The notes beneath the pieces are model-generated. The model had not been told where the DNA came from, ran no database searches, and saw only the letters and a program-made list of their open reading frames with translations. A program made the translations under genes and the position numbers. From Cupriavidus necator (GTDB lineage: Bacteria > Pseudomonadota > Gammaproteobacteria > Burkholderiales > Burkholderiaceae), in the NCBI RefSeq assembly GCF_016127575.1, contig NZ_CP066018.1:3720001-3752000 (forward strand): a DNA stretch of 32,000 nucleotides, written 5' to 3'. Shown here in pieces: positions 5,216 through 29,591 of this stretch (position 1 is the first letter of the stretch; every line of letters begins with the position of its first letter).

Positions 5216-5253
5216 TCTGAGCCCATGCGGCATGGCCGTGAGCAGCGACAACA

Positions 5254-5955: not shown

Positions 5956-6236
5956 GGCCGTGGTCTTACATACGCGGACAGATTTCCTTTATCGTCGCTG
6001 CCGTCTGTAGCTTTGCGAGCGGCGTCTGCACGATTGGTTGCCAGACTGGCCTGATCGTTGTGTCTGGCTCCGCTTTTGGTGTGCTTGTTGGTATCCGTGC
6101 TTCTCGCCTGGTGGTCCTACCGACAGTACCAAGGGCTGGGTCTTCCTGAAAGCGAAAGTGCGTCACATCACTAGGGCAACCGATGGATCCGTCAGAAATT
6201 TTGTGTTTAGGCATAACATGTCACCAAGGAGCATGT

Positions 6237-6551: not shown

Positions 6552-6968
6552 GATATTCATGCGGCCAGGCATCGCCGATGCGTACAGCGCGCCTTCGGGT
6601 TGCATCGGCATTGCCGCCGCCATGAGCAGCTGCTCGTAGGTAGCGTGCAGCTCCCATTCTGCCTTCGCCGCCGTCGAGCCATACTCGCGGACGTTCCATC
6701 CGTTGATCTCGTCGGCCCGCGCCTTCAATAGGCGCGCGGCTTCGCGGAGGATTTCAGCGCGTTTATCGAAGCTTGTGGACGCCCATCCTGGCTGCGCACG
6801 CTGCGCGGCATTAGCTGCCCGGTCGATATCATCCGCAAGGCCGATTCCGATCGTCGCCAGGATCTTCCCCGTCGACGGCTCGACGACGTCCGCAACGCTG
6901 CCAGTGCCAGGCACCCAACCGTTCGAGAAGATCCGCCCTTCCCATGCGCATGAATTGCTATTGGTCAT
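6552..6968 (-). pseudogene. Aldehyde dehydrogenase family gene, N-terminal ~135 codons only
   Basis: MTNSNSCAWEGRIFSNGWVPGTGSVADVVEPSTGKILATIG..AQPGWASTSFDKRAEILREAARLL..EINGWNVREYGSTAAKAEWE is a typical ALDH N-terminus. Homology ends after ..ALYASAMPGR near 6552-6565, where the reading frame runs into the antisense of the IS256 relic. Confidence 0.75.
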
Positions 6969-7008
6969 TAATGTCTCCGCAAATACTGTAGGAATATCGC
7001 CAGCGTCA

Positions 7009-7292
7009 TCAATTGGCAGAGCCGGCCAGAACCCGCACGACGCCTGACTCCCTCTTGCCGTGATCCGAGATTAGGAAGACCGCGATCGCGGCCACCACGC
7101 CGGGGATGGCAAACACCATGAAGTTGAACGTGTTAGGAAACTGCTGGCTCAGGAGGTAGCCACCCAGTGCGGGCCCTGACACTGCGCCGAGCCGCCCGGC
7201 TGCTGCGGCCCAACCGACTCAGGTCGACCGTACGTGCGCGGGATATAACTGGGCTGCGAAGGCATGTACGATTGGGGTTGCCCAGCCCCCGA
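7009..7292 (-). pseudogene. MFS transporter, C-terminal relic with an in-frame TGA
   Basis: The minus-strand frame reads ..EIGGWATPIVHAFAAQLYPAHVRST*VGWAAAAGRLGAVSGPALGGYLLSQQFPNTFNFMVFAIPGVVAAIAVFLISDHGKRESG..*. The stop at 7219-7221 sits where MFS proteins have the Gly of the RxxG(x)G motif. The natural stop is at 7009-7011. The 5' ~350 codons are absent, and the upstream boundary is approximate. Confidence 0.55.
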
Positions 7293-7341
7293 TTTCGGAA
7301 TATATTTTTCTCCACAAAGACCCCATCGGGGAGACTCCCCT

Positions 7342-7713
7342 ATGAGCGTATACGTCGCACGTGATCGAGCAAGCGCGCTTGAGCACATCAGTTCGCGCAT
7401 AGATAGTACTGTCGATCTAGACTATGAAACCGCGTGGGAAGACGCGTTCGAACTCGGACGACTTGGGCAACAGCGCGGCATCGTCGTACAGTTCCGAACC
7501 ATCGAACATGTCTGTGTGGAGTCTGCAGATGCGCTAGCCAGAGGGCTCCGCGGAGAAAAACTCACATTCCGACAGCGACACCTCTACTGCCGGTTCGACA
7601 TGACGGCATTATCCGAGGACTGTCTGTGCGAACTCGAGGCACTCGCTATCAAGCACGGCGACTACATCCTGCCTGGTCACTTGCTGCAAGAAGCCACGCT
7701 CATCTGGAACTAG
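7342..7713 (+). CDS. Hypothetical protein (123 aa), no recognisable family
   Basis: ATG at 7342 lies 8 nt after GGGGAG. The ORF sits in a locally AT-richer patch bounded by gene relics. I recognise no motif. Confidence 0.45.
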   Translation: MSVYVARDRASALEHISSRIDSTVDLDYETAWEDAFELGRLGQQRGIVVQFRTIEHVCVESADALARGLRGEKLTFRQRHLYCRFDMTALSEDCLCELEALAIKHGDYILPGHLLQEATLIWN

Positions 7714-7969
7714 CCAGTTCATGCTGTCCCAACAGCGATACGTTGGGCGGCATCTCGCATGTCGGGCCACCGGCTGACGCAGGCAAGGGACTTCGCGCTC
7801 GCATGCCATCGCAAAAGAACTCCGCTGAAGAGCAAAAATGTTGTCTTCCCGGCATGCCGGCCAGACTGCTTCCGGGAGATAGCAAATCTACTTAAGAAGA
7901 ATCCCTACGGGCGGAAGCATCCCGGCAAAAGTAGGATGACGGGACGAACTTTGCATGAAGGAATATGTC

Positions 7970-8398
7970 ATGCGTCCCCGCTATGCGACTGAGAAGGATT
8001 GGCCTGAGGTTGAGGCCCTCCTGCGTGCTTCCTCACTTTGCGTCGAGGGGGTACGCGAACATATCACCCATTTCATCATGGTCCGCGACAATGCCGGGCT
8101 CCTCGGATGTGCCGGCGTGGAGCGCTATGGGGAAACAGGACTTCTTCGAGGACTGGCTGTTGCGCAGCGCGCAAGGTCTGCAGGTCTCGGCGAGCTTCTG
8201 CTTTCCGCAATCGTGGCAGACGTCCGGCTGCAAGGGGTCGCATCAATAGTGTTGCAGACCAAGACCGCATCCGGCTATTTCGCGCGCCTCGGCTTCGCGC
8301 CAATCAACCTTTCTGACCTGCCGCCTGCCGTAATGCGCTCGCAGGAACTCAACCGTCCCCCAGCCGATGTCGGGACGCTGATGCAAATTGCCTTGTAG
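7970..8398 (+). CDS. GNAT-family N-acetyltransferase (ArsN2/ArgA C-terminal-like pattern)
   Basis: The product is 142 aa from MRPRYATEKDW. AAGGA lies 7 nt upstream of ATG 7970. The pattern GVERYGETGLLRGLAVAQRARSAGLGELLL..VLQTKTASGYFARLGFAPI is the acetyl-CoA-binding GNAT core. Confidence 0.85.
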   Translation: MRPRYATEKDWPEVEALLRASSLCVEGVREHITHFIMVRDNAGLLGCAGVERYGETGLLRGLAVAQRARSAGLGELLLSAIVADVRLQGVASIVLQTKTASGYFARLGFAPINLSDLPPAVMRSQELNRPPADVGTLMQIAL

Positions 8399-9782
8399 TA
8401 GCTCGCTCGCAAGTTCATTCGCCGGAGCGGGCAGCCAGGCGCATTGCGGAACCACGGAGGACGGCTCGCAACGTTGATGTCGATGCAAGAATTTCCACCA
8501 CGCCAGGGTCATCGCGGCTTTGGCTTCCTTGACCTTGCTGCCCTATTCCCTTCGAGCGGCTTGAATTTCCCGAAGTCTTCTTCATGCGCCCTGCTCCCGA
8601 CCGTGGGCTTTTCGGGGAGCGGTTTAAGCCATTAGCGCGGCACGATTTGAGGCCAACAGCCGTGTTCAACCGGCACCGACTTCGTTCGTGAGCGGCTTGC
8701 CGCTTTCGAACTCCGTCACGCTGCGCAAGGTTGTTTCGCAAATGGTCGTCACGGCCTCACGCGTGAGGAAGGCTTGGTGCCCGGTCACGATCACGTTAGG
8801 AAACGTGATTAGCTGCTGCAGCACGGAGTCGTCGACGATGATGCCGGACAGGTCGCGGAAGAACAGGCCCGCCTCCTGCTCGTACACGTCGATCGCCAGC
8901 CCGCCGAGTTGCCCGCTCCGGAGCGCTCCGATGACTGCTTCCGTGTCGATCAGCCCGCCGCGGCTGGTGTTGATGAGCAAGGCCCCCGGCTTGGCGCGCG
9001 ACAGCGTTTCGGCATTGATGATGTGATGGGTCTCGGGCGTGAGCGGGCAATGCAGCGAGATGCAGTCCGCGCTTGCGCCGATTTCTCCCTCGTCCGCGTA
9101 GCGTCCACCAAGGGCCTCGAATTCCGGGGACGGGTACTTGTCGTAGCCGATCACGTTGCAACCGAACCCGACCATGATTTTCGCAAACACGCGCCCGATC
9201 TTGCCGGTGCCGATCACGGCCACGGTCTTGCCGCACAGGTCGAAGCCCATCAGGCCTTCGAGCGAGAAATTGAAGTCCCGCGTGCGATTGTAGGCCCGGT
9301 GGATCTTGCGGTTGACCGCCATCAGCAGGGCCGCCGCGTGCTCGGCGACCGCGTTGGGCGAGTAGTCGACAACGCGCACCACCTTGATCCCGAGCGCCTG
9401 CGCGGCTTTCAGGTCGACGTTGTTGAACCCCGTGCAGCGCAGCGCGACCAGCTTGGTGCCGCCGCGTCCGAGCGCTTCCAGCACGGTCGCATCGGCCCGG
9501 TCATTGACGAAGATGCACACTGCGCCGTGGCCCGCGGCGAGGCCCACCGTCTCATTGTCCAAGGGAACTTCGAAGTACTTGAGCTGATGGCCTTCGGCCG
9601 CATTCGCGGCATCGAGATGTTGACGATCATAGGACTTTGCGCTGAAGACGGCGATTTCCATGATGTGTCTCCGCGGCGAATCGCATGGCGCGCTTCGCCC
9701 AGGTTGCCCTGCACTATCCGCCAGCCAGTGTGGCGGCGACCTGTACGAACAGGATTTTCACGATGGTCATTGACGGGAAGAT
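8107..9782. repeat. Tandem duplication, unit 1 (1,676 bp)
   Basis: Every ORF in the track within 8107-9782 recurs at +1,676 nt with an identical translation in several frames and on both strands. The stretches I compared base by base (8107-8690 vs 9783-10366; 9662-9782 vs 11338-11458) are identical. Confidence 0.9.
8666..9661 (-). CDS. ldhA: D-lactate dehydrogenase (D-isomer-specific 2-hydroxyacid dehydrogenase), copy 1
   Basis: The 331-aa product is colinear with fermentative LdhA. Shared blocks include CIFVND, ALRCTGFNNVDL, AVAEHA, NRKIHRAYNRTRDFNFSLEGL, GKTVAVIGTGKIG, SLHCPLTPETHH, NTSRGGLID and GHQAFLT. An SD (GGAGA) precedes the ATG. Confidence 0.95.
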   Translation of the reverse strand: MEIAVFSAKSYDRQHLDAANAAEGHQLKYFEVPLDNETVGLAAGHGAVCIFVNDRADATVLEALGRGGTKLVALRCTGFNNVDLKAAQALGIKVVRVVDYSPNAVAEHAAALLMAVNRKIHRAYNRTRDFNFSLEGLMGFDLCGKTVAVIGTGKIGRVFAKIMVGFGCNVIGYDKYPSPEFEALGGRYADEGEIGASADCISLHCPLTPETHHIINAETLSRAKPGALLINTSRGGLIDTEAVIGALRSGQLGGLAIDVYEQEAGLFFRDLSGIIVDDSVLQQLITFPNVIVTGHQAFLTREAVTTICETTLRSVTEFESGKPLTNEVGAG

Positions 9783-10074
9783 ATGTGCCGGCGTGGAGCG
9801 CTATGGGGAAACAGGACTTCTTCGAGGACTGGCTGTTGCGCAGCGCGCAAGGTCTGCAGGTCTCGGCGAGCTTCTGCTTTCCGCAATCGTGGCAGACGTC
9901 CGGCTGCAAGGGGTCGCATCAATAGTGTTGCAGACCAAGACCGCATCCGGCTATTTCGCGCGCCTCGGCTTCGCGCCAATCAACCTTTCTGACCTGCCGC
10001 CTGCCGTAATGCGCTCGCAGGAACTCAACCGTCCCCCAGCCGATGTCGGGACGCTGATGCAAATTGCCTTGTAG
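9783..10074 (+). pseudogene. 5'-truncated second copy of the GNAT gene (codons 52-end), embedded in chimeric ORF 9685-10074
   Basis: CAGVERYGETGLL...MQIAL is identical to the C-terminal 96 aa of the 7970-8398 product. The first 33 codons of ORF 9685-10074 are antisense to the ldhA upstream region and the transporter 3' tail. Confidence 0.8.
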
Positions 10075-10341
10075 TAGCTCGCTCGCAAGTTCATTCGCCG
10101 GAGCGGGCAGCCAGGCGCATTGCGGAACCACGGAGGACGGCTCGCAACGTTGATGTCGATGCAAGAATTTCCACCACGCCAGGGTCATCGCGGCTTTGGC
10201 TTCCTTGACCTTGCTGCCCTATTCCCTTCGAGCGGCTTGAATTTCCCGAAGTCTTCTTCATGCGCCCTGCTCCCGACCGTGGGCTTTTCGGGGAGCGGTT
10301 TAAGCCATTAGCGCGGCACGATTTGAGGCCAACAGCCGTGT

Positions 10342-11337
10342 TCAACCGGCACCGACTTCGTTCGTGAGCGGCTTGCCGCTTTCGAACTCCGTCACGCTGC
10401 GCAAGGTTGTTTCGCAAATGGTCGTCACGGCCTCACGCGTGAGGAAGGCTTGGTGCCCGGTCACGATCACGTTAGGAAACGTGATTAGCTGCTGCAGCAC
10501 GGAGTCGTCGACGATGATGCCGGACAGGTCGCGGAAGAACAGGCCCGCCTCCTGCTCGTACACGTCGATCGCCAGCCCGCCGAGTTGCCCGCTCCGGAGC
10601 GCTCCGATGACTGCTTCCGTGTCGATCAGCCCGCCGCGGCTGGTGTTGATGAGCAAGGCCCCCGGCTTGGCGCGCGACAGCGTTTCGGCATTGATGATGT
10701 GATGGGTCTCGGGCGTGAGCGGGCAATGCAGCGAGATGCAGTCCGCGCTTGCGCCGATTTCTCCCTCGTCCGCGTAGCGTCCACCAAGGGCCTCGAATTC
10801 CGGGGACGGGTACTTGTCGTAGCCGATCACGTTGCAACCGAACCCGACCATGATTTTCGCAAACACGCGCCCGATCTTGCCGGTGCCGATCACGGCCACG
10901 GTCTTGCCGCACAGGTCGAAGCCCATCAGGCCTTCGAGCGAGAAATTGAAGTCCCGCGTGCGATTGTAGGCCCGGTGGATCTTGCGGTTGACCGCCATCA
11001 GCAGGGCCGCCGCGTGCTCGGCGACCGCGTTGGGCGAGTAGTCGACAACGCGCACCACCTTGATCCCGAGCGCCTGCGCGGCTTTCAGGTCGACGTTGTT
11101 GAACCCCGTGCAGCGCAGCGCGACCAGCTTGGTGCCGCCGCGTCCGAGCGCTTCCAGCACGGTCGCATCGGCCCGGTCATTGACGAAGATGCACACTGCG
11201 CCGTGGCCCGCGGCGAGGCCCACCGTCTCATTGTCCAAGGGAACTTCGAAGTACTTGAGCTGATGGCCTTCGGCCGCATTCGCGGCATCGAGATGTTGAC
11301 GATCATAGGACTTTGCGCTGAAGACGGCGATTTCCAT
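10342..11337 (-). CDS. ldhA: D-lactate dehydrogenase, copy 2 (identical translation to copy 1)
   Basis: The 331-aa translation is identical to 8666-9661. The gene lies 52 nt downstream of the transporter gene stop on the same strand. Confidence 0.95.
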   Translation of the reverse strand: MEIAVFSAKSYDRQHLDAANAAEGHQLKYFEVPLDNETVGLAAGHGAVCIFVNDRADATVLEALGRGGTKLVALRCTGFNNVDLKAAQALGIKVVRVVDYSPNAVAEHAAALLMAVNRKIHRAYNRTRDFNFSLEGLMGFDLCGKTVAVIGTGKIGRVFAKIMVGFGCNVIGYDKYPSPEFEALGGRYADEGEIGASADCISLHCPLTPETHHIINAETLSRAKPGALLINTSRGGLIDTEAVIGALRSGQLGGLAIDVYEQEAGLFFRDLSGIIVDDSVLQQLITFPNVIVTGHQAFLTREAVTTICETTLRSVTEFESGKPLTNEVGAG

Positions 11338-11389
11338 GATGTGTCTCCGCGGCGAATCGCATGGCGCGCTTCGCCCAGGTTGCCCTGCA

Positions 11390-12982
11390 CTATCCGCCAG
11401 CCAGTGTGGCGGCGACCTGTACGAACAGGATTTTCACGATGGTCATTGACGGGAAGATCATCGAGTAGCCGAGGTCGGGCCGGTCGGTGGGCGCGACGCG
11501 GTTGGCAAAGGCAAGGATGGCGGGATTGCCGGTCGCGCCGCAGATCACGCCCACCGCCAGGTCGAACGGCAGCCTGAAGACCCAGAGGCAGAAAATCGCA
11601 GTAATCAGCAGCAGGGCAAGCAGAATCACCACGCCATAGATCAGGAAGGACACCCCGGTTACGCCGATGGTGGCGAAGAACTTCGGCCCGGATGCAATGC
11701 CCACCTGTGCCAGGAAGATGGTCAGCCCGAAGTTGCGCAGGACCAGGTTGGCCGACAGCGGCATGGTCCAGACGAACGGCCCGAGACGGCGCACCCGGCC
11801 GAGCATGAGGGCGACCAGCAGCAGCGCCGCCAGCCCCAGCGCCAGCGTGCCGACGCCCGGAATCGGCACCGGGATCAGCCCCACCAGCAGCCCGAGGGCC
11901 GCGCCGATGCCGATCGAGATAAAGCTCAGCTCGGCGGTGCCCTTGATGGAGTCGCCGAACAGCGCGCGAATCGGCTTCATGTGGGCGCGATTGACCAGCA
12001 GGCCGACGCGGTCACCGAACTCGAGGGTGAGGTCATCCCGGGGCATCAGGTCCGCATCACCGCGCCGCACATGGGCGATCGAGCAGACCATGCCTTCGGG
12101 AAAGCGGATATCGCGCAGCGTGTGTCCGACCACGAGCCGGCTAGAGGCGAACACGCGCATATAGTCCAGGTCTTCGCGATGGCTTGTCATGCGGCCCGGC
12201 TGCAGTTCCCCGCACAGCGAGGTGGCTTCACGCAGCACGGCCGGGTCAGTGGCGGTCGCGAGCAGCACGTCGTTGGCCTGCAGGACCAGGTCGTCGGCGG
12301 AGGGGTGGTTGTGGTGGGCGCGACGCACGGCGGCAATCGCCACCCCGTCCGGTAGGCGCGCTACCACCTCCGACAGCCGCGCGCCGATAAACGCCGGGTT
12401 CGTCAGCGCAATCTCGGCGGTCTCGATCAGCTTTGGCGGCGGCCGCACGATATTCGGCTTGAGCAGCGCGGTGAGCGCATACAGAAACAGGATCGGCCCT
12501 GCCACGCCGACTGGGTATGCGACGCTGTAGCCCACCGCGGCGCCGTCGCTCTTCATCGCCGCCATCGCGGCCTGCAGGCTTGCCGTGCTGGTGCCCGCGC
12601 CGGCGAACATGCCTAGCGACTCGTCTAGCTTCACGCCGACCAGCGGCACCAACGCAACCGCGAGCAGTCCGGAGCCAACCACGCCGAGGACCGCAGCGGC
12701 GTTGGCCTTGATGCCATCGGGGCTGGTCAGACCCTTAAAGAACTGCTCCCCGTACTGGATCCCAATGCCATAGAGAAAGAGCAGCAGCCCTAGGGTGCCA
12801 AGGATGGCAGGCGGCGCGGACTTCGGCGCGAACCCGCCGATCGCCAGCCCCACGAACAGCACCGCGCCCGAACCGAGCGACACGCCCTTGATATTGATCT
12901 CGCCGAAGACATAGCCCAGTGCAACCGTGAGGAACAGCGTGAGCAGCGGCTGGGTTTCGAGCAATGTCCGGACTGCATCCAT
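11390..12982 (-). CDS. AAE-family (AspT/YidE/YbjL-type) putative transport protein with two central TrkA-C/RCK_C domains
   Basis: The product is 530 aa from MDAVRTLLETQPLLTLFLTVALGYVFGEINIKG. ATG 12982 is preceded by AAGGAG. It has N- and C-terminal polytopic halves flanking two RCK_C-like segments (..LQANDVLLATATDP.., ..LEFGDRVGLLVNRAH..). The ORF-track start at 13087 adds 35 non-hydrophobic codons without an SD. Confidence 0.85.
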   Translation of the reverse strand: MDAVRTLLETQPLLTLFLTVALGYVFGEINIKGVSLGSGAVLFVGLAIGGFAPKSAPPAILGTLGLLLFLYGIGIQYGEQFFKGLTSPDGIKANAAAVLGVVGSGLLAVALVPLVGVKLDESLGMFAGAGTSTASLQAAMAAMKSDGAAVGYSVAYPVGVAGPILFLYALTALLKPNIVRPPPKLIETAEIALTNPAFIGARLSEVVARLPDGVAIAAVRRAHHNHPSADDLVLQANDVLLATATDPAVLREATSLCGELQPGRMTSHREDLDYMRVFASSRLVVGHTLRDIRFPEGMVCSIAHVRRGDADLMPRDDLTLEFGDRVGLLVNRAHMKPIRALFGDSIKGTAELSFISIGIGAALGLLVGLIPVPIPGVGTLALGLAALLLVALMLGRVRRLGPFVWTMPLSANLVLRNFGLTIFLAQVGIASGPKFFATIGVTGVSFLIYGVVILLALLLITAIFCLWVFRLPFDLAVGVICGATGNPAILAFANRVAPTDRPDLGYSMIFPSMTIVKILFVQVAATLAGG

Positions 12983-15244: not shown

Positions 15245-16945
15245 CTAGGGCGCGGAAAACGCCGCGCCGATTTGCCGTGCCCGTTTCATCTCGTCGCCGT
15301 GCAGGTAGATCGAGGTGGTCGAGATCGAGGCGTGACGCAGGTTGTCCCTCACTGTCGTCAATTCCGCGCCGCGCGCCAGTGCATGAGTCGCATGAGTGTG
15401 CCGCATCCAGTGCGGGCTCGCCTGCCGCAGCTTGTCGGCGGCGGAAGGGTGATCCGCCTGGATCAAGTCCGCCACTTGCCTGAAGAAGCGCCGCAACACG
15501 CCCCACAGGCGCGTGCCGGTGATGCCACTGGCCGGATCCTGGCCAAGGCCGCCGATCAGTGGGGTATGCGGGTCCCATCGCGCTGGCGTGACTGGCAGGC
15601 CTCGTTCCACCAGATAGCTGTCGAGCGCCAGGCGCGCCAACGGTGGCAGTGCCACCTTGCCAGCCTTGGCTCCTTTGCCAACCAGCTTGAGCCAATGGTC
15701 GCCATGGGGATCGCTTTCAACGTCGCCGAGCGTCGCACCGACGAGTTCGCTGGCGCGCAGTCCGGTGGCGTAGCCGAAGTCCAGCACAAAGCGCAGGCGC
15801 TGGGCCGCCGGGCCGTCCCAGCCATAGGACCATTCGAGGCCGTCAGCAATGGTGCGGATCAGCAGCCATTCGCCTTCCGTGAACGCGTGCGAGCTGTCCA
15901 GCGCCACCGACCGCCCTCCTCCGCGCACCTTGATCCCGGCGAACGGATTGGCCAGCACATAGCGCTGCTGGATCAGCCAGCGGAACATCGCCCCCAGTAC
16001 AGACAAGGCATGGGCGGTGGAGCGCGCCGAGAGGCTGCCGGTGAACGGACGCCAGTCGGGCGAGGTACGTGGTCTCGCTGGCCCTACCCAGCGTTCCCGG
16101 GGCGCCGGTCGCCGCACGAAGCTGCGATAGGCCGTCGCATCCTCAGTGGTCAGCGACGACAACGGCCGTTCGCGCTCGACAATCGCCCACAGGATCAGCC
16201 GCTCGGCCTCTTTGCGATAGGTGCGCTGCGTCGCTGGCGACTCATGCAAGGCCAGCCACGCCTGGATCGCCGCGTAATCGTTGTCCGCATTGAGGGCGCA
16301 GGTCGCGCGCGGCGCGCGGAACTTCCCCCGCGACCCATCCACTTCATGCGGCAGCCGCAGTTGCTCCCATGGCACGACCATGCCCCGCGGCGCCTGCGCG
16401 AGCAGCGCCCGGGCGCGCTCGGTCAGTTGGGGGTGCCGGGCAAAGAAGGCTTCGACCTGTCGGGCCCCGGCCGCGCCCAGGCCGGGGATCGCGGCCCACC
16501 AGCGGCGCCGGCGCGGCACCCGAACGGTCAGTGCCGCCAGCGTGTCGATGCCCTGCGCGCGCAGCGCGGCGACCGTGCGCGGCGCCAGCCACAAGCCGAT
16601 GTCGTCGCTGATTGCCGGTGCCGGCGGCGGCAGCGTACGCAGCGTCTCGATGGCATGGTCCGCTGCCCTGCCCTTCTCCGCCCGCTCGGCCGCGGAAATT
16701 TCAAACAGCGCAGCCAGGTCCTCGCGCTGGCGGCTGCGGGCGTATGCGGCAAGCTGGCGGCGGATGCGCCCGAGGATGCCGCGCGACGACTGGCCCTGCG
16801 CCCGCTCCTCGCCCAGATATCGTGCGACGGCTTCGCGCGTCGTCAGCCCGGCATGCCAGGCGCGCAGCGCGGCGAGTGAGGTGGCATCGGGGAAGCCGGA
16901 TGGCGGGGCCGGTTCCGGCGGGGTCAGGGTCAAGCGAGTTTTCAT
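15245..16945 (-). CDS. Tyrosine recombinase / phage-integrase-family protein, 566 aa with a long N-terminal extension
   Basis: The C-terminal catalytic set is intact: ATGLRASEL (Arg I), GKGAKAGKVALP (Lys), HWMRHTHATH (His-x-x-Arg), LRHASISTTSIYLH (His/Tyr). The ~250-aa N-terminal region contains helix-hairpin-helix-like GIDTLAAL / IPGLGAAGARQVEAF segments. Confidence 0.85.
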   Translation of the reverse strand: MKTRLTLTPPEPAPPSGFPDATSLAALRAWHAGLTTREAVARYLGEERAQGQSSRGILGRIRRQLAAYARSRQREDLAALFEISAAERAEKGRAADHAIETLRTLPPPAPAISDDIGLWLAPRTVAALRAQGIDTLAALTVRVPRRRRWWAAIPGLGAAGARQVEAFFARHPQLTERARALLAQAPRGMVVPWEQLRLPHEVDGSRGKFRAPRATCALNADNDYAAIQAWLALHESPATQRTYRKEAERLILWAIVERERPLSSLTTEDATAYRSFVRRPAPRERWVGPARPRTSPDWRPFTGSLSARSTAHALSVLGAMFRWLIQQRYVLANPFAGIKVRGGGRSVALDSSHAFTEGEWLLIRTIADGLEWSYGWDGPAAQRLRFVLDFGYATGLRASELVGATLGDVESDPHGDHWLKLVGKGAKAGKVALPPLARLALDSYLVERGLPVTPARWDPHTPLIGGLGQDPASGITGTRLWGVLRRFFRQVADLIQADHPSAADKLRQASPHWMRHTHATHALARGAELTTVRDNLRHASISTTSIYLHGDEMKRARQIGAAFSAP

Positions 16946-21517: not shown

Positions 21518-22042
21518 ATGGAACTTCATATGCAATCGCATCGCTACGCGCACCGGTGGCCGGACTGGCGTGCGGCGGCGCTGGCGGGCCTCGTCGCCGG
21601 GGTGGTATTCCTGGTGCTCGACTTGCTGGCGGCCATGCTGATGGGGGCCAGCGTCTGGAAGCCGCTGACCATGATCGCGGCCATCATGCTGGGCCCTGAT
21701 GTGCTGGCGCAAGCTGCCACCTTCCAGATGAGCGTGCTGGTAGCGGCCGTGGTGGTCCACTTCGTGCTCTCTGTCGTGTTCGCGGTGATCCTGGCAGCGA
21801 TCATGGCGCCGTTCCGTTTCGATTCGAGCGTCGGCATGGCCTCGGTGGTGGGGGCGCTGTTCGGCCTGGTCCTGTACCTGGTCAATTTTCACGGCATGAC
21901 TGCCGTCTTCCCATGGTTTGCCGAAGCGCGAGGCTGGGTGACCGCCATTGCCCACATCGTGTTCGGCCTGGTCGCGGCTGACTCGTATCTGAAACTGGAG
22001 CGGCACGTGGATGCGTCCGCCGGCGGAACTGGCGGTACCTAG
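21518..22042 (+). CDS. Hypothetical integral membrane protein (about four TM segments)
   Basis: A strong SD (AAAGGAGGA) spans 21505-21513. Four hydrophobic stretches are visible (LAGLVAGVVFLVLDLLAAML, LTMIAAIML.., VLVAAVVVHFVLSVVFAVILAAI, VVGALFGLVLYLV / VTAIAHIVFGLVAA). Confidence 0.7.
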   Translation: MELHMQSHRYAHRWPDWRAAALAGLVAGVVFLVLDLLAAMLMGASVWKPLTMIAAIMLGPDVLAQAATFQMSVLVAAVVVHFVLSVVFAVILAAIMAPFRFDSSVGMASVVGALFGLVLYLVNFHGMTAVFPWFAEARGWVTAIAHIVFGLVAADSYLKLERHVDASAGGTGGT

Positions 22043-22083
22043 GAGAGCAAGCGCAAAACGAGCAGCGGCAAGGCGCGCGATCC

Positions 22084-22836
22084 ATGCAGACCGTCGCCTA
22101 TCCCTATCAGCCAGTGCCTGAACGGGGCACCCTGAGGTGCTTCCTGCTGGCCTTGTTCATGCACCTGCTGCTGGGTGCCCTGCTCTACTATGGCGTGCGC
22201 TGGCGCAGCGCGGCGCCGGAGGGTATCGCGGCCGAACTGTGGGAGGCGATCCCGGAAGCCGCAACGCCAGCGCCTGCAATCACGCCGGCGCCAAGCCCGA
22301 AGCCGGTCGAAGAGGAAGACGCCGACATCTCGCTGCAGGAAAAGCAGCGCAAGGCCGAGCAGGCCGCGCGCGACCAGGCACAAGCACGGCAGCGCGAGAA
22401 CCAGGCCCGTGCCGAAGCGGCCCGCAAGGAGGCGCAGCGCAAGGCGACGGAAGCGCAGCGCCAGGCCGACAATGCCCAGCGCCAGGGCGAACTGGCGCGA
22501 TTGCGGTCGCAGGCGGGCAATTCGGGAACACGGGTCGGCTCCGGCTCCGGCACCAAGCCTTCGTCCGGTTATGCCGAGCGGGTCCGGCAGCGGGTCAAGC
22601 CGAACATCATTTTCAATGAAGACGTCAGCGGCAATCCGGCGGCGGTGGTGGCCGTGGGCATGGCGCCGGATGGCTCGGTGCTGTCGACGCGGCTCGCCAA
22701 GTCAAGCGGCAATGCGGCCTGGGACAACGCCGTGCTGCGCGCGGTGCAGCGATCCGACCCGCTGCCGCGCGACGAAAACGGCGTTGCACCGTCCAATATC
22801 CTCATTACTTTCTGGCCCAAGGACGAAGGCGGCTAG
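22084..22836 (+). CDS. TolA-like / TonB-C-terminal-domain cell-envelope protein
   Basis: It has an N-terminal anchor (CFLLALFMHLLLGALLYYGV) and a Pro-rich linker. A long charged QRKAEQAARDQAQARQRENQARAEAARKEAQRKATEAQRQ helix follows, then a C-terminal YAERVRQRVKPNIIF..GNPAAVVAV..APDGSVL..KSSGNAAWDNAVLRAV..PLP block, as in TolA domain III. Confidence 0.75.
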   Translation: MQTVAYPYQPVPERGTLRCFLLALFMHLLLGALLYYGVRWRSAAPEGIAAELWEAIPEAATPAPAITPAPSPKPVEEEDADISLQEKQRKAEQAARDQAQARQRENQARAEAARKEAQRKATEAQRQADNAQRQGELARLRSQAGNSGTRVGSGSGTKPSSGYAERVRQRVKPNIIFNEDVSGNPAAVVAVGMAPDGSVLSTRLAKSSGNAAWDNAVLRAVQRSDPLPRDENGVAPSNILITFWPKDEGG

Positions 22837-22866: not shown

Positions 22867-25800
22867 CTACGCCTCTATGTAGCCCTTGCGCAGTTTCTCC
22901 GCCACCAGCTTGTCCGCCTCGCGCCGTGCCCGCTCGGCGCTGTCGAAGGTCTTCACGCTGGTCTGCCCTGTGCTGCCGATGCGGCCGTAGGTGACGGAGA
23001 GCTCCGCCCCGCGTACGCTGGCACGCCAGAACTTGCGCGATGTGCCCTGTTCGAAGCGCAGGCTCCGAACCAGTTCCGCTTGCGCAGCCGATGCCGTCGC
23101 CGCGTCCGTCCGGGCCTCGCCCGTTGACGCCGGATCCTGCGCCGCGGCCGGCTTCGCCAACGGCACCGGCATCTCGACCTCCACGTCCAGCGCGCGATCC
23201 TCGCCATCGGCCAGCATGGCCTCGATGCGGGCCAGCACCGCGTCCCGATCGTCGAGCCAGTCCTTGCCGGGGATGTCCAGCACCAGCCAGCCGAAGCCGC
23301 GCAGGACGCCGGGGCGGAACACATAGCGCTCGGCGGTGTCCGTCACCGGCTCGGACGGCGCATCGAGCAGGATCGCCAGCGCGTAGCCTTGTCCCGACGG
23401 ATCGGCGATGGCCAGGTCGCAGCGGAACTGCGAGCGGCCGACGTTGGCGTGCACCTGGTGGCCGCGCGCACGCAGCGCCTCGGCCAGTGCGTCGCGGACG
23501 CTGTCCGGCGTGGCCTCGCGCGTGAAGGCGTCGCGCGCGCCGGGGTTCAGCGCGCCGAGCACCGACTGGGCGCGTTCGAACTGCCCGCGCGCGCTGGCCT
23601 GCGCGAACTGCAGGAACGCACGCAGCGCGGCCGCGCCATCGTTGTGCACGTTGGTGATCGCCTCGGCCTGGATCGTCGACACCACCGCCATCCGATGGCG
23701 CGCGCGGCTGAAGATCACGTTCAGCCGCTTCTCGCCGCCGCGCTGGTTGATCGGGCCGAAGTTCATCAGCATCTTGCCGTCCGGCCCCGGCGCGTAGCAG
23801 ATGCTCAGGATGATCACGTCGCGCTCGTCGCCTTGCACGTTCTCCAGGTTCTTGACGAACAGTCCGTTGAACTGGTCGTCGTCCTCGCGCACGTACTCGC
23901 GCTCGAGGCGCATCGCGAAGTCCGCGTCCTCGGCGGCCAGCGCCTCGAGCGCGGACTCGATGGCGCCCTGCTGCGCCTCTGAAAACGCCACGATGCCCAG
24001 GCTCAGCCCGGTCTCGCGCCGCAGCAGCTCGCGCACGGTCCGGGCGATGTAGTTCGCCTCCTGCGCATTGCGGCGCTCCGCGTAGACGCCGTCGGCCAGC
24101 CGGTGGAAGCTGACCGGCCGCGCCAGCAGCGCGTCGGCGCCCGCGATGCCGGCATCTTCCTGGTCCGAACGCAGCGCAGGCGCCTCGTCCTCGGCCTGCT
24201 CCAGCAAACGGTCGGGAATGGTGACCAGGCGTCCGTCGTAGAACGCCGCGTTGGAAAAGCTGATCAGCGACTCGTGACGGCTGCGGTAGTGCCACGCCAG
24301 CAGCGTGGCGGGCAGGTTGCGCGCGGCCTGGTTCAGCAGGCTGTCCGAATCGAGATTGATCGCGATGCGCTCGCCCTCCTCTTCCACGACGATCTCGTCG
24401 TCGCCCTCGGCACCGCCGGCCGTGAAGAAACTTGTCGGCGGCAGCTGCATCTCGTCGCCGACCACCACCACCTGGCGCGCGCGGCTCAGCGCCGGCACGG
24501 CCTCCTCGGTCGGAATCTGGCTGGCCTCGTCGAAGATCACCACGTCGAACAGATCAGGCGACAGCGGCAGCGTGTCGGACACCGACAATGGACTCATCAG
24601 CCAGATCGGCTTCAGGTCGTTGATGACGAGGCCGGTCTCGTCGTCGCAGAGATCGCGGATCGAGCGGTGGCGCATGCTCTTGCCGAACTCGTGCTCCAGT
24701 TCGCGGCGACCCGTGGCGTATTGTTTCTTGAACGCCTTGCCGTCGGCGTCCAGCATCGTGGCCGACAGCGAGGACACGCGCACGTGCTCGGCAAACTGCC
24801 GGTGCCGCGTGGCGCGAACCACTTGCGCGTTCAGCGCGAGCAGTTCACGCTGCCCTTGCGCCACGGCGCGCGCAGCCTGCGCCAGCGCCGCGCCGCCAAA
24901 GCGCGCCAGCACCGGGTTCTCGCGCGTGAGACGGCGCAGTGCCTCATCGGCGACCAGCGCCTCGAGCTGCACCGGTGCGTGATCGAGCCACTGCAGCATG
25001 GCGGCACAGGCGGGGTCGCCCGCATGCACCGCGCGCAACAGCGGCAACAGGTCTGGCAGGTCGTCCAGCGCCTCGCGCAGGTCGCGCAGCAGTTCGGCGA
25101 TGTCGCCGAGGCGCGCATCGGCGGCCAGCGCCAGCCCGTCGCGTACACGCTGCGCGAGCTTCTCCAGCGACTCGCGCGCACCGGCCTCGGCGCGCGCCGC
25201 CGCGACCGGGTCGACAGCCTGGCGCAAGTGCGCGACCAGTTCGCGCGGGCCTGCGCCCGACTGCAGGCGCCGCTCGAGTTCGCCGAGCGCGCGCAGGAAA
25301 GCCCGCATCTCGCCGACCCCGTAGCGGCGGCGGCTGTCGGCATCGGCCGCCGCCAGCGCGGCGCTCGCGGCGTGCTCAGCGGCCAGCGCTTCCAGCACCT
25401 TGCCGTAGCCCGGATGGACGGCGTGCTTGCCGAAGTCATAGCGGCGCTTCAGTTCGCCGCGCAGCCGCCACCATGCGGGCTGCAGCCAGCGCGCGAACGA
25501 CGGCTCCAGCCGCCGCGCGAGCGCCAGCGCCGATTCGGTATCGCCGGGGCTCAGCTTGTCCTGCCAGTTAGACGTTGCGGCTTGCGCGTCGGCGAGTGCC
25601 TGTGTGCGCGACTCCAGCTCCGCGCGGATCTCGCGCAGCGCGGCTTGCGCCGGCGAGGCCGCGTCGAGCAGGTCCAGATGCGCGGCCAGGCCCGTGTCGA
25701 GCAGCCACTGGCTGTCGGCGGCGATTGCGCGTGCCTGCTCCAGCGCGGTGTCCTGGCCGGTCAGGCTGGCGGTACTGTCGAGCAGCGGGTCGAGCGCATC

Positions 25801-28389
25801 GAACAGCGCCTCGGCGTCACGGCACAGCTGCTCGGCGCGGCCATAGGCGCGCTCGTCGGCCAGCAGTTGCGGCGACAGGCGCGCGAACGGGTGCGCGGCC
25901 AGGCTGTCGACACCGAAGCGCTCGCGCATCGCGCGGTGCACGCGGTGCGCGAGATCGCGCTGACGGTCCCAGGCGGCCAGCGCCGGCAGGCGCTCGCGCA
26001 GCGCAGGCCCTGCCTCGGGCACAGCGGGCAACGCGGCCACGCGGCGCAGCAACGCACGCACGCTGTCGCCGAGTGCCTCGGGCGCGCTGGCCATCGCCGA
26101 CTCGAATGCGTCGATGCGCTGCTGGTATGCGGCCAGCGCCTCGACGACCTGCGTGCGGCGCGCAGCCAGCGCGTCGCCATCGTGCGGCTGCGCGATCCAC
26201 TGCTCGTAGCAGGCACGCAGGTCGGCAATAAAGGCCTTCTTGTCGGTCTGCGAGTCGTGGATCAGGGAGCACAGCGAGTCCAGCCCGCTTTGCTTGAGCC
26301 GGTGGAACACCACGTCGAGCGCGGCGCGCTTCTCGCAGACGAACAGCACGCGTTTGCCGCGGCCCGCGTAGTCGGCGATCAGGTTGGTGATGGTCTGCGA
26401 CTTGCCAGTGCCCGGCGGGCCCTGGATGATGAAGCTGCGCTGGCTGCGCGCGAGGCCGACCGCGGCGTTCTGCGTCGCATCGGCCCCCACCACGTTCCAC
26501 TGCTCGGCCGGTGCGAGCGGCGCGGGCACTTGCGTCTCCACGTCGCGCGGATCGATCGAGAACACGCGGTCGAATGCCGGATTGGCGCCGGGCTCGTCCA
26601 GCAACTGCGCGTAGTCGCGCACCAGCGACATCTTGCGGTAGTTGAAGTTGGCGAGCGTCACCTGCGTCAGGTCCAGGTCCCAGGCATAACGGTGGCCTTC
26701 GGACTCCTCGAGCACGTAGCCCTGGCGCTCGTCGCTTTCCGCGGCGGCGGGGCCGCTCATGTGTGGCTGGCGCGGACCGGCGCCCGGTGCGGCGCCCGCC
26801 TCGAAGCGCTGCGGCAGCTCGCTCGGCCGCACCCAGTGCTCGAACAGCGCGCGTCCCAGCGGCCGGTAGTCGTCCTGCGCATAGCTGTACGGCGGCAGCC
26901 AGCCACCGGTGCGCGCGGCGGCCGGGCCCGGCTTGCGGCGCTGGAACTGCTGCATCCGCTGCAGCGCCTTCTGCCGCACCAGCCGCACCGCGGCCTTGTC
27001 GACCAGGCGCAGCTCCACTGACGGTTCCGAGCGGCGGATCTGCGCGAGGATGCCGGCATGGATCTCCTCGAGCGAGATCTTGCCGAGATCCACCGTCTCG
27101 TCCAGCCGGATGTCGTACAGCTGGCTCAGGTAGTGGCGCAGCACCGGGTTGAACTCGGCCTCGCCGCCCGCGCACTGGATCACGTACTGGTCGCGCACGC
27201 CCTTGCGTTTGACCAGCTCCACCGGCAGCCACAGCAGCGGCGTCACGATGCGCTCGTCCGGCGCCTCCTTCAGGTTGTGCCAGCGCAGGAACGCCACCAC
27301 CAGGCGCAGGTTGCTGAAGCCATACTCGGCGCGGTCGCGGCGGGTCTCGGCGATCAGGCGGTCCAGCGACGCCGGCAGGTAGGGCTGGTCGTCGAAGCGC
27401 AGCCAGCGCTGCAGCGACACCGGCTTGCCCGCCACCAGGTCGGCTGCGAACGGTCCGCCCCAGGTGCAGATATGCTCGGGCCGCACGCTTTCGATCTGCA
27501 GCATCAGCGGCACGCTGGCCACGGTGACGTTGACGCTGACCGCGGTCGGACGGAAATGCAGCAGGCGGTTGCGCCGCGACAGATCGAACAGGCGGTCGCG
27601 CAGGTGCGTGAGCACGGCGGCGCGGCGCGGCGTGGCACCGGTCGTGCCGGCCAGCGCACGCTCGACGTCCAGGCCGAGTGGCTGGTCGCGCCACGTGCGC
27701 AGCCGGGTCGCCAGCGCGGCGACATCGGTGGCGCGGTCGTGGCGGTTGATCTCGGTCATCTCGACGATCACCGCGGCGACGATCGGATGCAAGCGCTCAT
27801 GCAGCAGGAACAGGTTGCGGCGATGCGCCACGAAACTGCGCAGGTCGTCCTCGTCGGCGAAGTCCAGGCCGCAGGCCAGGCTCGCCAGCACCATGCCGAG
27901 CAGGAAGATGTCGCCGATTTCGTCGTGGTGGCCGACGAGCCGTTCCCAGCTGGCCGGGCCGGGCAGGTAGACCGGGCGCGCGACGGGCGCCGTAGCGTCA
28001 AGCTGCAGCGCCAGGTCGGCCTGGTCGCGCTGTCCGTCGTCGGCATGGCCGAGCTGCAGCGCGCCGACGATGTTCAGGCCCGAGGCCGGATGCGGCTGCA
28101 CGCGATGCACCGCGCCGATGTCCATGACGGGCGCCTCGCCATCGGGCCGGCGCAGGCGCAGCGCCCCATCCTCGTCCACCAGGATGCTGTCGCGATCGAG
28201 CGCGGCCACCCTGCCCTGCGCGTGCAGCGTGGCAACCTGCGCGAACAGCGGCAGCACCAGCACCAGGACGTCGTCGGTGGGCAGCGCCGCGCCCGCCTGC
28301 GCCTCGATCAGGGCGCGCAGCATGCGCGGCTCCCCGCTGCCGGTCATATCCGGAATGGTATTGGTGCCGTGGGTCGTGCTGTCAGTCAT
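22867..28389 (-). CDS. 1,840-aa multidomain protein: kinase-like N-domain / DUF4011-like region / Upf1-like SF1 helicase (AAA_11+AAA_12 type) / restriction-endonuclease-like fold / C-terminal WGR domain
   Basis: ATG at 28389 (MTDSTTHG..) follows GGGAGGG and overlaps the upstream stop (ATGA). Motifs:
- LFDLSRRNRLLHFRP (DUF4011-type)
- Walker A IIQGPPGTGKSQT (~26398-26424)
- VVIFDEASQI and VVVGDEMQLPP (~24470-24545)
- WHYRSRHESLISFSN
- NVQGDERDVIILS and GEKRLNVIFSRARHRM
- GRSQFRCDLAI..LAILLD..FGWLVLDIPGKDW
- KFWRASVRGAELSVTYGRIGSTGQTSVKTF..KLRKGY. Confidence 0.9.
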   Translation of the reverse strand: MTDSTTHGTNTIPDMTGSGEPRMLRALIEAQAGAALPTDDVLVLVLPLFAQVATLHAQGRVAALDRDSILVDEDGALRLRRPDGEAPVMDIGAVHRVQPHPASGLNIVGALQLGHADDGQRDQADLALQLDATAPVARPVYLPGPASWERLVGHHDEIGDIFLLGMVLASLACGLDFADEDDLRSFVAHRRNLFLLHERLHPIVAAVIVEMTEINRHDRATDVAALATRLRTWRDQPLGLDVERALAGTTGATPRRAAVLTHLRDRLFDLSRRNRLLHFRPTAVSVNVTVASVPLMLQIESVRPEHICTWGGPFAADLVAGKPVSLQRWLRFDDQPYLPASLDRLIAETRRDRAEYGFSNLRLVVAFLRWHNLKEAPDERIVTPLLWLPVELVKRKGVRDQYVIQCAGGEAEFNPVLRHYLSQLYDIRLDETVDLGKISLEEIHAGILAQIRRSEPSVELRLVDKAAVRLVRQKALQRMQQFQRRKPGPAAARTGGWLPPYSYAQDDYRPLGRALFEHWVRPSELPQRFEAGAAPGAGPRQPHMSGPAAAESDERQGYVLEESEGHRYAWDLDLTQVTLANFNYRKMSLVRDYAQLLDEPGANPAFDRVFSIDPRDVETQVPAPLAPAEQWNVVGADATQNAAVGLARSQRSFIIQGPPGTGKSQTITNLIADYAGRGKRVLFVCEKRAALDVVFHRLKQSGLDSLCSLIHDSQTDKKAFIADLRACYEQWIAQPHDGDALAARRTQVVEALAAYQQRIDAFESAMASAPEALGDSVRALLRRVAALPAVPEAGPALRERLPALAAWDRQRDLAHRVHRAMRERFGVDSLAAHPFARLSPQLLADERAYGRAEQLCRDAEALFDALDPLLDSTASLTGQDTALEQARAIAADSQWLLDTGLAAHLDLLDAASPAQAALREIRAELESRTQALADAQAATSNWQDKLSPGDTESALALARRLEPSFARWLQPAWWRLRGELKRRYDFGKHAVHPGYGKVLEALAAEHAASAALAAADADSRRRYGVGEMRAFLRALGELERRLQSGAGPRELVAHLRQAVDPVAAARAEAGARESLEKLAQRVRDGLALAADARLGDIAELLRDLREALDDLPDLLPLLRAVHAGDPACAAMLQWLDHAPVQLEALVADEALRRLTRENPVLARFGGAALAQAARAVAQGQRELLALNAQVVRATRHRQFAEHVRVSSLSATMLDADGKAFKKQYATGRRELEHEFGKSMRHRSIRDLCDDETGLVINDLKPIWLMSPLSVSDTLPLSPDLFDVVIFDEASQIPTEEAVPALSRARQVVVVGDEMQLPPTSFFTAGGAEGDDEIVVEEEGERIAINLDSDSLLNQAARNLPATLLAWHYRSRHESLISFSNAAFYDGRLVTIPDRLLEQAEDEAPALRSDQEDAGIAGADALLARPVSFHRLADGVYAERRNAQEANYIARTVRELLRRETGLSLGIVAFSEAQQGAIESALEALAAEDADFAMRLEREYVREDDDQFNGLFVKNLENVQGDERDVIILSICYAPGPDGKMLMNFGPINQRGGEKRLNVIFSRARHRMAVVSTIQAEAITNVHNDGAAALRAFLQFAQASARGQFERAQSVLGALNPGARDAFTREATPDSVRDALAEALRARGHQVHANVGRSQFRCDLAIADPSGQGYALAILLDAPSEPVTDTAERYVFRPGVLRGFGWLVLDIPGKDWLDDRDAVLARIEAMLADGEDRALDVEVEMPVPLAKPAAAQDPASTGEARTDAATASAAQAELVRSLRFEQGTSRKFWRASVRGAELSVTYGRIGSTGQTSVKTFDSAERARREADKLVAEKLRKGYIEA

Positions 28390-29591
28390 GCCCGGCCCTC
28401 CCTGGCCAGTTCGCGGTGGAGTTGGCGCTGGTAGCGGTCCAGCTCGCGCTTGCCGAAGCCGGCGTCGCGGCGCAGGTTGCCATGCAGCGCTTCCAGGCTG
28501 CCGAGCGCCTGCGCCACCTGGCCGGCGCGCAGCAGCGCCGCGTCCTGCTGGTCGGGGTCGGCGAGCGCCAGGTCCATCATCAGCGCGTTGAGGTAGCCGC
28601 GCACGCTGTCGTCGGCCACGTCCGGCCCCAACCCCTCGGGGCCGATCGCTGGTTCGTCGTCGCGCCAGTCGGGGAACATCATGCGCACTTGCGCGAGTAC
28701 TGCCTCGCTCGCCAGCGGCGTGCCGGCGAGGAAGTGGGCCAGGAAGCCGCGCGTCAGCGCCTGCAGGCGGATCTGTCCCGGCAGGTCCAGCTTCTCCAGC
28801 GCCAGCGGGCCGTGCAGCCGGGTTTCGATCCATGGATCGAGATCGGCCGCGCCCTCCCACCACAGCGCCAGTGCGCGCGCCCGGATAAAGGTCTCGGGAT
28901 GGCTGTGGGCGGCGCTCGCGCCCGCTTCGTGGGCCTCGATCTCGGCCGCCTGGCGCAGGTAGGCGGCCGCGTCCACGCTGCCGATGCCGGTCTGCACCTT
29001 GACCAGCGTCGACACGGCCGGCGCCACCGCACGGGCGGCCACGGCGCCGCCGCGGTCGGCGAACAGCTCGGTGTGCAGCGCGTAGCGGCGCCAGGTCTCG
29101 CGATGGCTGGCGCTGGCGCCGGGCGCGGCCAGCGCGTCGTTCAGGATGCGGTCGGCCACCAGGAACTGGCCGTCGTCGCGCGACCACAGCAGGTAGTGGG
29201 CCAGTTCGTGGCCGAACACCGCCAGCAGCTCCGGCGGCGACAGCCGATCCAGCAGCGGCCCCTGCAGGATGATGTGGACCTCGCCCGGCACGTAGACCAG
29301 CGACGCGTTCATGTCATGGCCCGGCGACTGGTAAAGCGTCGCGGGGGCGTCGATGCCGAGGCGCGCCATCGCCTCGGCCAGCGCCGCGTGCACGTCGGCA
29401 TGTGCGTCCGCCTCGAGGCGGTAGGTGTCGCGCAGCAGCATCGAGCGCAGTGCCTCGCGGTGATCGGCGCCGGTCGCGCGGGCGCCGGCCCAGCGCCAGA
29501 CCTCGGGCTCATGGCGGCGCAGGTAGTCGACCACCGTTGCGTGATAGGCAAGCGGCACCAGCGCGCCGCGATCCGGGGCGTGAGAGTCCAT
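28386..29591 (-). CDS. M48-like zinc metallopeptidase, predicted cytoplasmic (401 aa)
   Basis: HELAH lies at 29196-29210 (aa 128-132). Downstream are HTELFADRGG (aa ~173-182) and SHPETFIRARAL. Together these are the HExxH / ExxAD / HP..R set seen in HtpX/BepA/Ste24-type M48 peptidases. I see no hydrophobic TM segment or signal peptide. The C-terminal ~170 aa look helical. Confidence 0.8.
   Translation of the reverse strand: MDSHAPDRGALVPLAYHATVVDYLRRHEPEVWRWAGARATGADHREALRSMLLRDTYRLEADAHADVHAALAEAMARLGIDAPATLYQSPGHDMNASLVYVPGEVHIILQGPLLDRLSPPELLAVFGHELAHYLLWSRDDGQFLVADRILNDALAAPGASASHRETWRRYALHTELFADRGGAVAARAVAPAVSTLVKVQTGIGSVDAAAYLRQAAEIEAHEAGASAAHSHPETFIRARALALWWEGAADLDPWIETRLHGPLALEKLDLPGQIRLQALTRGFLAHFLAGTPLASEAVLAQVRMMFPDWRDDEPAIGPEGLGPDVADDSVRGYLNALMMDLALADPDQQDAALLRAGQVAQALGSLEALHGNLRRDAGFGKRELDRYQRQLHRELAREGRA

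Follow-up and report, generated by a model that had tools for sequence, protein, structure and literature searches.

A WGR domain at the C-terminus of a Upf1-like helicase of Cupriavidus necator: a conserved, optional module that may target the enzyme to DNA discontinuities

In a 32,000-nucleotide stretch of the Cupriavidus necator genome (contig NZ_CP066018.1, positions 3,720,001 to 3,752,000; hereafter, the window), a minus-strand gene (28389..22867) encodes a protein of 1,840 residues in which a Upf1-like superfamily 1 (SF1) helicase is followed by a C-terminal WGR domain. These last 69 residues (1772-1840; 22870..23076, minus strand) are a true WGR domain of the PARP type, as supported by Pfam (PF05406), by an AlphaFold2 model and by structural matches, and the tail that they form is real, expressed, selectively maintained and optional. 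It is probably an accessory module that targets the helicase to nicks, gaps or ends in DNA, with DNA binding itself presumed. No experimentally defined function was found in a literature search for any bacterial WGR domain, and the present setting is an interpretable one: the domain is tethered to a helicase, lies in a slot that is alternatively occupied by BRCT, conserves PARP-like contact residues and is expressed in a laboratory bacterium that can be cultured. A tail that proved to read nicks or 5'-phosphate ends would represent PARP-style break sensing in bacteria apart from ADP-ribosylation, and it would help to explain how a widespread protease-plus-helicase pair, which has relatives in the anti-phage proteins Hhe and ProA, comes to its substrate; if it binds no nucleic acid, the database label "predicted DNA-binding WGR domain" needs revision.

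The identification of the domain, which the original prediction had placed at the extreme C-terminus as a canonical WGR, is borne out. Translation of the minus strand from 22870 to 23076 gives the 69 C-terminal residues, followed by a TAG stop codon at 22869-22867. Searched with the tail alone, PF05406 scores 68.0 bits (E 7.9e-19, profile positions 11-74 of 79), against a gathering cut-off of 22 bits; the score is 60.4 bits within the full open reading frame (ORF) and 67.8 bits in the genome search, which found no second WGR in the three replicons (7.4 Mb). The match spans residues 1781-1839, numbered from the real start, the ATG at 28389; a 2,106-residue ORF from a GTG at 29187 was rejected as the gene, its first 266 codons overlapping the gene upstream. 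A plus-strand reading of 22870-23076 was also set aside: it yields no domain, and the gene is on the minus strand. The signature motifs that had been named from the sequence (KFW, YGRIGSTGQ, K.F and EKLRKGY) are all found in the translation and correspond to the most conserved, near-invariant positions in 46 diverse tails of the family.

The fold was examined in an AlphaFold2 model of the last 240 residues, built from the family alignment, which is a predicted and not a solved structure. The WGR occupies model residues 171-240 with a predicted local distance difference test score (pLDDT) of 93-98, and in it four strands and a long helix precede a short last strand, the sheet being antiparallel and packed on the helix. 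Comparisons with Foldseek and VIA-align found the nearest solved structure to be the Bacteroides fragilis WGR protein 2ra8 (Z 12.8, root-mean-square deviation (rmsd) 0.9 Å, 47% identity over 68 residues). This is Q64V53, a structural-genomics protein of unknown function, which has the same minimal bacterial type of WGR; however, there the domain is at the N-terminus of a protein of 351-362 residues without a helicase, whereas here it is C-terminal. The model also superposes on the WGR domains of DNA-bound PARP2 (6f5b, 6f5f) and PARP1 (7s6m, 4dqy), with Z 8.8-9.6 and rmsd 2.5-2.8 Å over 71-73 residues, and on that of PARP3 with Z 8.5; a bacterial WGR profile reaches the PARP3 domain at E 0.0016.

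Taken as a group, the human PARP1, PARP2 and PARP3 domains (6f5b, 2eoc, 4dqy) thus belong to the same Pfam family and fold as the tail (Z 8.5-9.6, rmsd 2.5-2.8 Å, 71-74 residues). They have in common with it the aromatic-G-R motif, the GQ motif, the lysine and aromatic residue of the KF[WY] strand and, probably, the tyrosine that reads the 5' phosphate. The tail differs in being minimal: its 69 residues lack some 22 residues that PARP2 has in its loops and helix extension (22 of 95 PARP2 residues are unaligned). Moreover, PARPs carry an ADP-ribosyltransferase, a helical regulatory domain and zinc fingers, whereas the tail sits on a helicase. No Pfam match to a PARP catalytic or regulatory domain exists anywhere in the protein, which ends three residues after the WGR core, and a sensor enzyme of the PARP type is therefore ruled out by the absence of a transferase or helical regulatory domain after the WGR.

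In the WGR of PARP2, contacts to the 5' phosphate come from K130, K183 and Y201 and those to the backbone from Y132 and K179; the 5' ribose is stacked against W151, R153 contacts the 3' side along with N127, and Q159 contacts the complementary strand (PMC6294510). The equivalents of these residues in the tail were assigned via alignments with PARP3, which place KFW opposite NKFY and YGRIGSTGQ opposite WGRVGxxGQ, and via the end-points of the structural alignment. The resulting counterparts are K1786 for K130, W1788 for Y132, Y1801 for W151, R1803 for R153 and Q1809 for Q159, and K1832 lines up with K183; the structural alignment, which pairs all 73 model residues (168-240) with PARP2 110-204, sets Y1837 opposite Y201 by its end-points. 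Conservation at these positions was scored over 46 tails, each from a different 50%-identity cluster. Lysine is present in 43 of the 46 at K1786 and in all of them at K1832, tryptophan in 45 at W1788, phenylalanine or tyrosine in 43 at Y1801, arginine in 40 at R1803 (with lysine in five more), glutamine in 36 at Q1809 and tyrosine in 44 at Y1837, while the glycines G1802 and G1836 are invariant (46/46 each). Judged from these alignments, the WGR is under purifying selection at the positions that PARP2 uses for DNA contact.

Three further observations bear on the function of the tail. Firstly, the WGR has a net charge of +6 (the family mean is +4.7) on a protein whose remainder has a charge of -47. 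Secondly, as described below, relatives carry BRCT, and possibly a helix-hairpin-helix (HhH) domain, in the same C-terminal slot; BRCT and HhH are domain types of nick- and gap-handling enzymes such as PARP1, LigA and PolX. Thirdly, one other bacterial protein has a DNA-ligase OB domain fused to two WGRs, which was counted in favour of nick reading. The recognition of DNA ends or nicks is suggested by the superposition on DNA-bound PARP1 and PARP2 together with the near-invariance of the contact counterparts, and also by the basic island that the WGR makes on an acidic protein and by the company that it keeps in its slot. The WGR would then be an accessory nucleic-acid-binding module on a flexible tether; it would recognise discontinuities in duplex DNA, that is, nicks, gaps and ends with a 5' phosphate; and its binding would enrich the Upf1-like SF1 helicase at such sites or load it onto them, these being the entry points that the motor would need. 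Upf1-like motors move in the 5'-to-3' direction. A preference for nicks or 5' phosphates, and a role in targeting rather than in activation, are in our judgement the most likely forms of this function. There is an analogy with the C-terminal HhH and BRCT domains of LigA and the 8-kDa HhH domain of PolX, by which enzymes that process nicks or gaps are given an accessory hold on DNA; these modules have other folds than WGR, and the likeness would be one of role and position and not of homology.

Several points weigh against this assignment. The equivalence of Y1837 and Y201 is probable, coming as it does from alignment ranges rather than from residue-level output, and a plain sequence alignment puts Y1837 opposite a tryptophan some 13 residues upstream; that PARP3 alignment, in which the final KGY falls opposite KNNW, was set aside in favour of the structural one. 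PARP2 N127 and K179 have no conserved counterpart in the tails. The residues that are conserved are also those that define the fold of WGR domains in general, and their near-invariance is therefore no specific evidence of DNA contact. A literature search found no report of nucleic-acid binding by, and no functional study of, any bacterial WGR, and bacterial WGRs are also fused to leucine-rich-repeat and beta-propeller proteins without an obvious role in DNA transactions. BRCT, for its part, can also be a protein-binding domain. Finally, many full-length relatives are tail-less and nevertheless keep the protease partner described below and all other parts of the architecture, and the WGR is therefore not essential to the core mechanism; for the same reason, it fits an optional targeting aid better than an obligatory input.

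One alternative, which we consider less probable though by no means negligible, is that the tail gives the helicase a general affinity for nucleic acid, or else binds RNA or R-loops, and so prolongs its dwell on any polynucleotide, with no preference for nicks or 5' phosphates. The helicase core, which matches TIGR00376, is of the Upf1/IGHMBP2/senataxin type, a group that includes enzymes of RNA and R-loops, and the related protein ProA of the Prometheus system has been likened to enzymes that act on R-loops (PMC13700489). The net positive charge would suit unspecific binding equally well, and the tail is a minimal bacterial WGR without the extra segments of PARP. However, the counterparts of the 5'-phosphate-reading tyrosine and of the ribose-stacking aromatic residue are near-invariant, and the BRCT and HhH-like tails, together with the ligase-WGR fusion, point to discontinuities in duplex DNA.

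The distribution of the tail was followed at two depths. Among the 120 closest relatives (the best 90%-identity clusters, 67-94% identical to the protein), 118 have PF05406 with the key residues intact, and the two exceptions look frameshifted or truncated. Cupriavidus proteins are the nearest, and the clusters include others from Burkholderia, Ralstonia, Massilia, Lysobacter, Xanthomonas, Caulobacter and further genera; some relatives carry such database names as "WGR domain-containing protein" or "predicted DNA-binding WGR domain protein". The fusion is therefore already labelled in public databases, and the literature search found no paper on it. In a wider sample of 100 full-length representatives at 50% identity, a WGR tail is present in 33, whereas 64 have no tail and end within a few residues of the nuclease fold; the remainder comprise one BRCT tail (P0163), one HHH_8-like tail (P0170), which is tentative since its 25 bits are below the Pfam cut-off of 30, and one broken WGR (P0229). 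In a sample of genomes, 79 species-representative loci had a readable gene end (one further locus was unusable): 46 have the WGR, one has a frameshifted WGR, about 28 are cleanly tail-less, one has BRCT (L075) and one, an outgroup, has DUF3320 (L104). The frequency of the WGR is overstated in both samples, since the query by which they were ranked contained it. With a fragment (P0177) that forms a second lineage beside P0163, BRCT occupies the C-terminal slot in three independent lineages (P0163, P0177 and L075).

The tail-less forms are real, since no WGR remnants lie downstream of the tail-less genes, save for one frameshifted copy in a nanopore metagenome-assembled genome. Members of the family occur in Proteobacteria, Verrucomicrobia, Planctomycetes, Bacteroidota, Actinobacteria, Armatimonadota and Myxococcota. 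In DUF4011 helicases at a greater distance, sampled from the same class and from plasmids, the nuclease motif is canonical (MTES_1575 at 118-128 bits) and the tail is mostly DUF3320. The survey of tails on DUF4011-type helicases that had been proposed from the sequence thus gives WGR, no tail, BRCT and, tentatively, an HHH_8-like domain, with DUF3320 in outgroup helicases of the ProA/Hhe type; across the wider family, the WGR is an optional module. In PLSDB, the WGR form occurs only on Ralstonia megaplasmids of roughly 2 Mb, and a search of 50,697 phage records gave no similar WGR.

Mapped onto a tree of the helicase core, the presence of the WGR requires 16 parsimony changes, of which well-supported branches force at least six, and a single clade of WGR forms is rejected by the approximately unbiased (AU) test (delta lnL 221, p 4e-11; 50-row maximum-likelihood tree). 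The distances between WGR domains are, nonetheless, correlated with those between helicase cores (r 0.64, a value reached in none of 2000 permutations). As far as the sequences go, and on a tree of uncertain root, these results would fit a WGR that was acquired early, inherited together with the core and lost several times better than unrelated WGRs that were captured time and again. The many losses or gains that the non-monophyly implies, and the existence of frameshifted copies (P0229 and L105), could also be taken to mean that the tail has no present function, as an evolutionary remnant that the protein can do without and is in the course of losing. This we regard as highly improbable: the tail is kept, with its key residues, in nearly all of the closest relatives and is conserved in at least five phyla, its evolution is linked to that of the core, and it is transcribed.

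Broken genes were met elsewhere in the family. In genome G002 (L023:4667-10349, plus strand), two ORFs that overlap, 4667-8215 and 8130-10349, together make up the orthologous helicase; they lie behind an intact M48 peptidase gene, and the break could reflect a frameshift, a pseudogene or a sequencing error. The helicase gene is in several or many frames in Sphingomonas sp. H160509 (L103) and Nonlabens ulvanivorans (L102), which are likely to be pseudogenes or poor assemblies. Genome G002 also holds other WGR proteins: a 669-residue frame (L017:385-2391, minus strand; its N-terminus is beyond the end of the locus) has a DNA-ligase OB-like domain, two tandem WGRs and leucine-rich repeats, and another (L016) combines WGR with a beta-propeller. 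The partners of bacterial WGRs are thus very mixed.

The protease partner mentioned above is an M48-like zinc peptidase, the gene for which (28386..29591, minus strand; Pfam Peptidase_M48, 37 bits) lies upstream of the helicase gene. The helicase ATG (28389-28387) overlaps the TGA of the peptidase gene as ATGA, an arrangement of translational coupling, and is preceded by a GGGAGGG Shine-Dalgarno sequence. An M48 gene is directly upstream in most of the 80 species loci, with or without the WGR; WGR-tailed Chitinophaga loci (L066, L070, L079 and L084), where an iterated M48 profile detects no peptidase ORF upstream, are possible exceptions to this pairing.

This partnership raises another possibility, namely that the tail binds no nucleic acid and is instead a module for protein interaction or regulation. 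It might then plug the enzyme in autoinhibition, offer a site for docking, or act as substrate or decoy of the M48 peptidase, which might cut the linker. We think this unlikely. It would agree with the presence of WGRs on leucine-rich-repeat, beta-propeller and "fibronectin-binding" proteins of bacteria, with the long, exposed and disordered linker, which is an easy target for a protease, with the often protein-binding nature of the alternative BRCT tail and with the frequency of the upstream peptidase gene. However, the pairing with the peptidase is unchanged in the tail-less relatives and is therefore independent of the WGR; no stand-alone WGR gene is present near the tail-less loci among the 80; and the basic surface, with its PARP-like contact residues, suits nucleic acid better than protein.

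The targeting of the helicase to DNA discontinuities by the WGR may also be extended into a broader scheme, which is conjectural and, we think, rather doubtful. The C-terminal slot would be a "break-sensor socket" for interchangeable WGR, BRCT and HhH modules; in the present protein, the minimal WGR would by itself read 5'-phosphorylated nicks and load the 5'-to-3' motor at discontinuities of invading or damaged DNA, and the motor would activate the M48 protease as the actual effector. Were this scheme true, it would describe a nick-triggered proteolytic system of immunity or damage response, and it would give a prokaryotic precedent for PARP-style break sensing. A preprint on protease activation (PMC12642450) names neither M48 nor helicase effectors. 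The unit might act either in defence against phages or in the handling of DNA damage.

The operon is expressed. The whole of it is contained in RNA-seq contigs from seven studies, and the raw reads of three runs from one study cover the DNA at 30-60x from 29596 down to about 22450, so that the peptidase and the helicase are co-transcribed. The WGR codons are present at full depth (about 50-60x) in the minus-strand transcript, and the orientation of the reads is that expected of minus-strand RNA in the usual stranded libraries. In two of the three runs, transcript 5' ends accumulate at 29596, a position that is 5 nt upstream of the peptidase ATG (29591) and suggests either a nearly leaderless operon mRNA or a processing site. 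Downstream, the depth declines gradually between about 22740 and about 22180. A scan for consensus sequences found neither a terminator nor a promoter around the helicase stop codon. A TonB_2/TolA-like gene (21518-22836, plus strand) is convergent with the helicase gene, and antisense read-through is seen in the RNA-seq data; the 30 nt between the two stop codons contain no recognisable terminator. About 115 reads per run match just 27226-27243 and 28254-28274, with 22 foreign letters between these words and foreign sequence on both sides, and probably come from an abundant transcript elsewhere that has these short words in common.

The other parts of the helicase protein are, in order, a conserved N-terminal domain, DUF4011, the Upf1-like SF1 helicase, a degenerate MTES_1575 nuclease fold and a linker. 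The N-terminal domain (residues 1-240; 27670..28389, minus strand, as are all of these parts) has no match in Pfam and was found by phmmer in 97 of 100 full-length representatives of the family. It is followed by DUF4011 (residues 266-421; 27127..27594; PF13195, 52 bits), the only one in the genome. The N-terminal RecA-like domain of the helicase (AAA_11) begins at residues 637-703 (26281..26481; PF13086, 67.6 bits) with a Walker A motif that reads GPPGTGKS in the translation, and the C-terminal RecA-like domain (AAA_12) is at residues 1350-1571 (23677..24342; PF13087, 58.7 bits). The Vsr-like, restriction-endonuclease-like MTES_1575 domain is at residues 1634-1725 (23215..23490; PF18741, 50 bits). 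The claim that an SF1 helicase and a nuclease-like fold precede the WGR was thus correct, all of these domains being found by Pfam. The linker, which had been described as some 40 residues rich in alanine and proline, is indeed flexible and of about that length (44 residues, 1728-1771; 23077..23208), but it is alanine-rich and acidic rather than strictly alanine/proline-rich, with 13 Ala, 4 Pro and 9 Asp/Glu and a charge of -6. It is disordered in the AlphaFold2 model, with a pLDDT below 40 at model residues 137-169, and is hypervariable in length and sequence among relatives.

The nuclease part of the model is well formed and resembles 3hrl, I-Bth0305I and Vsr with Z 9-10. PF18741 scores 118-128 bits in the ProA-like relatives as against 50 bits here. 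Where the ProA-like proteins read FRIDLGV ... GIECDGATYH ... RDRxR, the 1,840-residue protein and its family read FRCDLAI ... AILLDAPSE ... ERYVFRP: the canonical IECDG..YH has become ILLDA, so that the glutamate and most of the basic RDRxR motif are gone in all aligned members of the family. These losses make DNA cutting by the domain doubtful, and, to go by the motifs, the two-gene unit probably has some output other than DNA cutting by the helicase protein.

Comparison with known systems places the protein in an unnamed, protease-partnered branch related to Hhe and ProA, in which the M48 gene lies upstream and the N-terminal domain is present. ProA (NF058533) has in common with it DUF4011, the Upf1-like SF1 helicase and the MTES_1575 fold in one polypeptide. 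However, the score of 706 bits (profile positions 577-1742 of 1903) is below the cut-off of 1500, and ProA has a DUF3320 tail, a canonical nuclease motif and a different N-terminus; DUF3320 has no Pfam match in the 1,840-residue protein, which is therefore not an equivalog of ProA. Moreover, ProA is a single-protein system (PMC13700489), whereas a peptidase gene accompanies the helicase here. Hhe (NF042953; PADLOC Hhe), a single-gene anti-phage helicase-nuclease, has the C-terminal helicase half and the Vsr-like nuclease fold in common with the protein, though only the C-terminal third aligns (467 bits, E 2e-96, profile positions 1155-1680 of 1797); the termini are unlike, the protease partner is particular to the protein here, and equivalence was rejected, the score being far below the cut-off of 2000. 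The PADLOC candidate PDC-S37 matches at E 1.2e-209 over profile positions 215-1357 of 1550, a profile for which PADLOC-DB has no curated cut-off, and a literature search found no paper on it.

The operon (22867-29591) has a GC content of 71.5%, in the top 0.8% of equal-sized 6.7-kb windows on the replicon (mean 66.5%), and its flanks are low in GC (60-64%). A full orthologue exists in about 19 of the 78 species of the genus, and in the genomes of the genus without the operon, the two flanks are not adjacent, so that no clean insertion or deletion can be defined. A PADLOC scan of six neighbouring ORFs matched nothing, and the window therefore lends no support to a defence island. The low-GC part contains a gene for a DUF3701 tyrosine recombinase (15245-16945, minus strand) and a remnant of an IS66 transposase (4130-4984). 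Elsewhere in the window, 8325-9782 and 10001-11458 form a perfect tandem duplication (100% identity over at least 1,458 bp), each copy of which holds a gene for a 331-residue D-2-hydroxyacid dehydrogenase (8666-9661 and 10342-11337, minus strand); this duplication is either very recent or an artefact of assembly.

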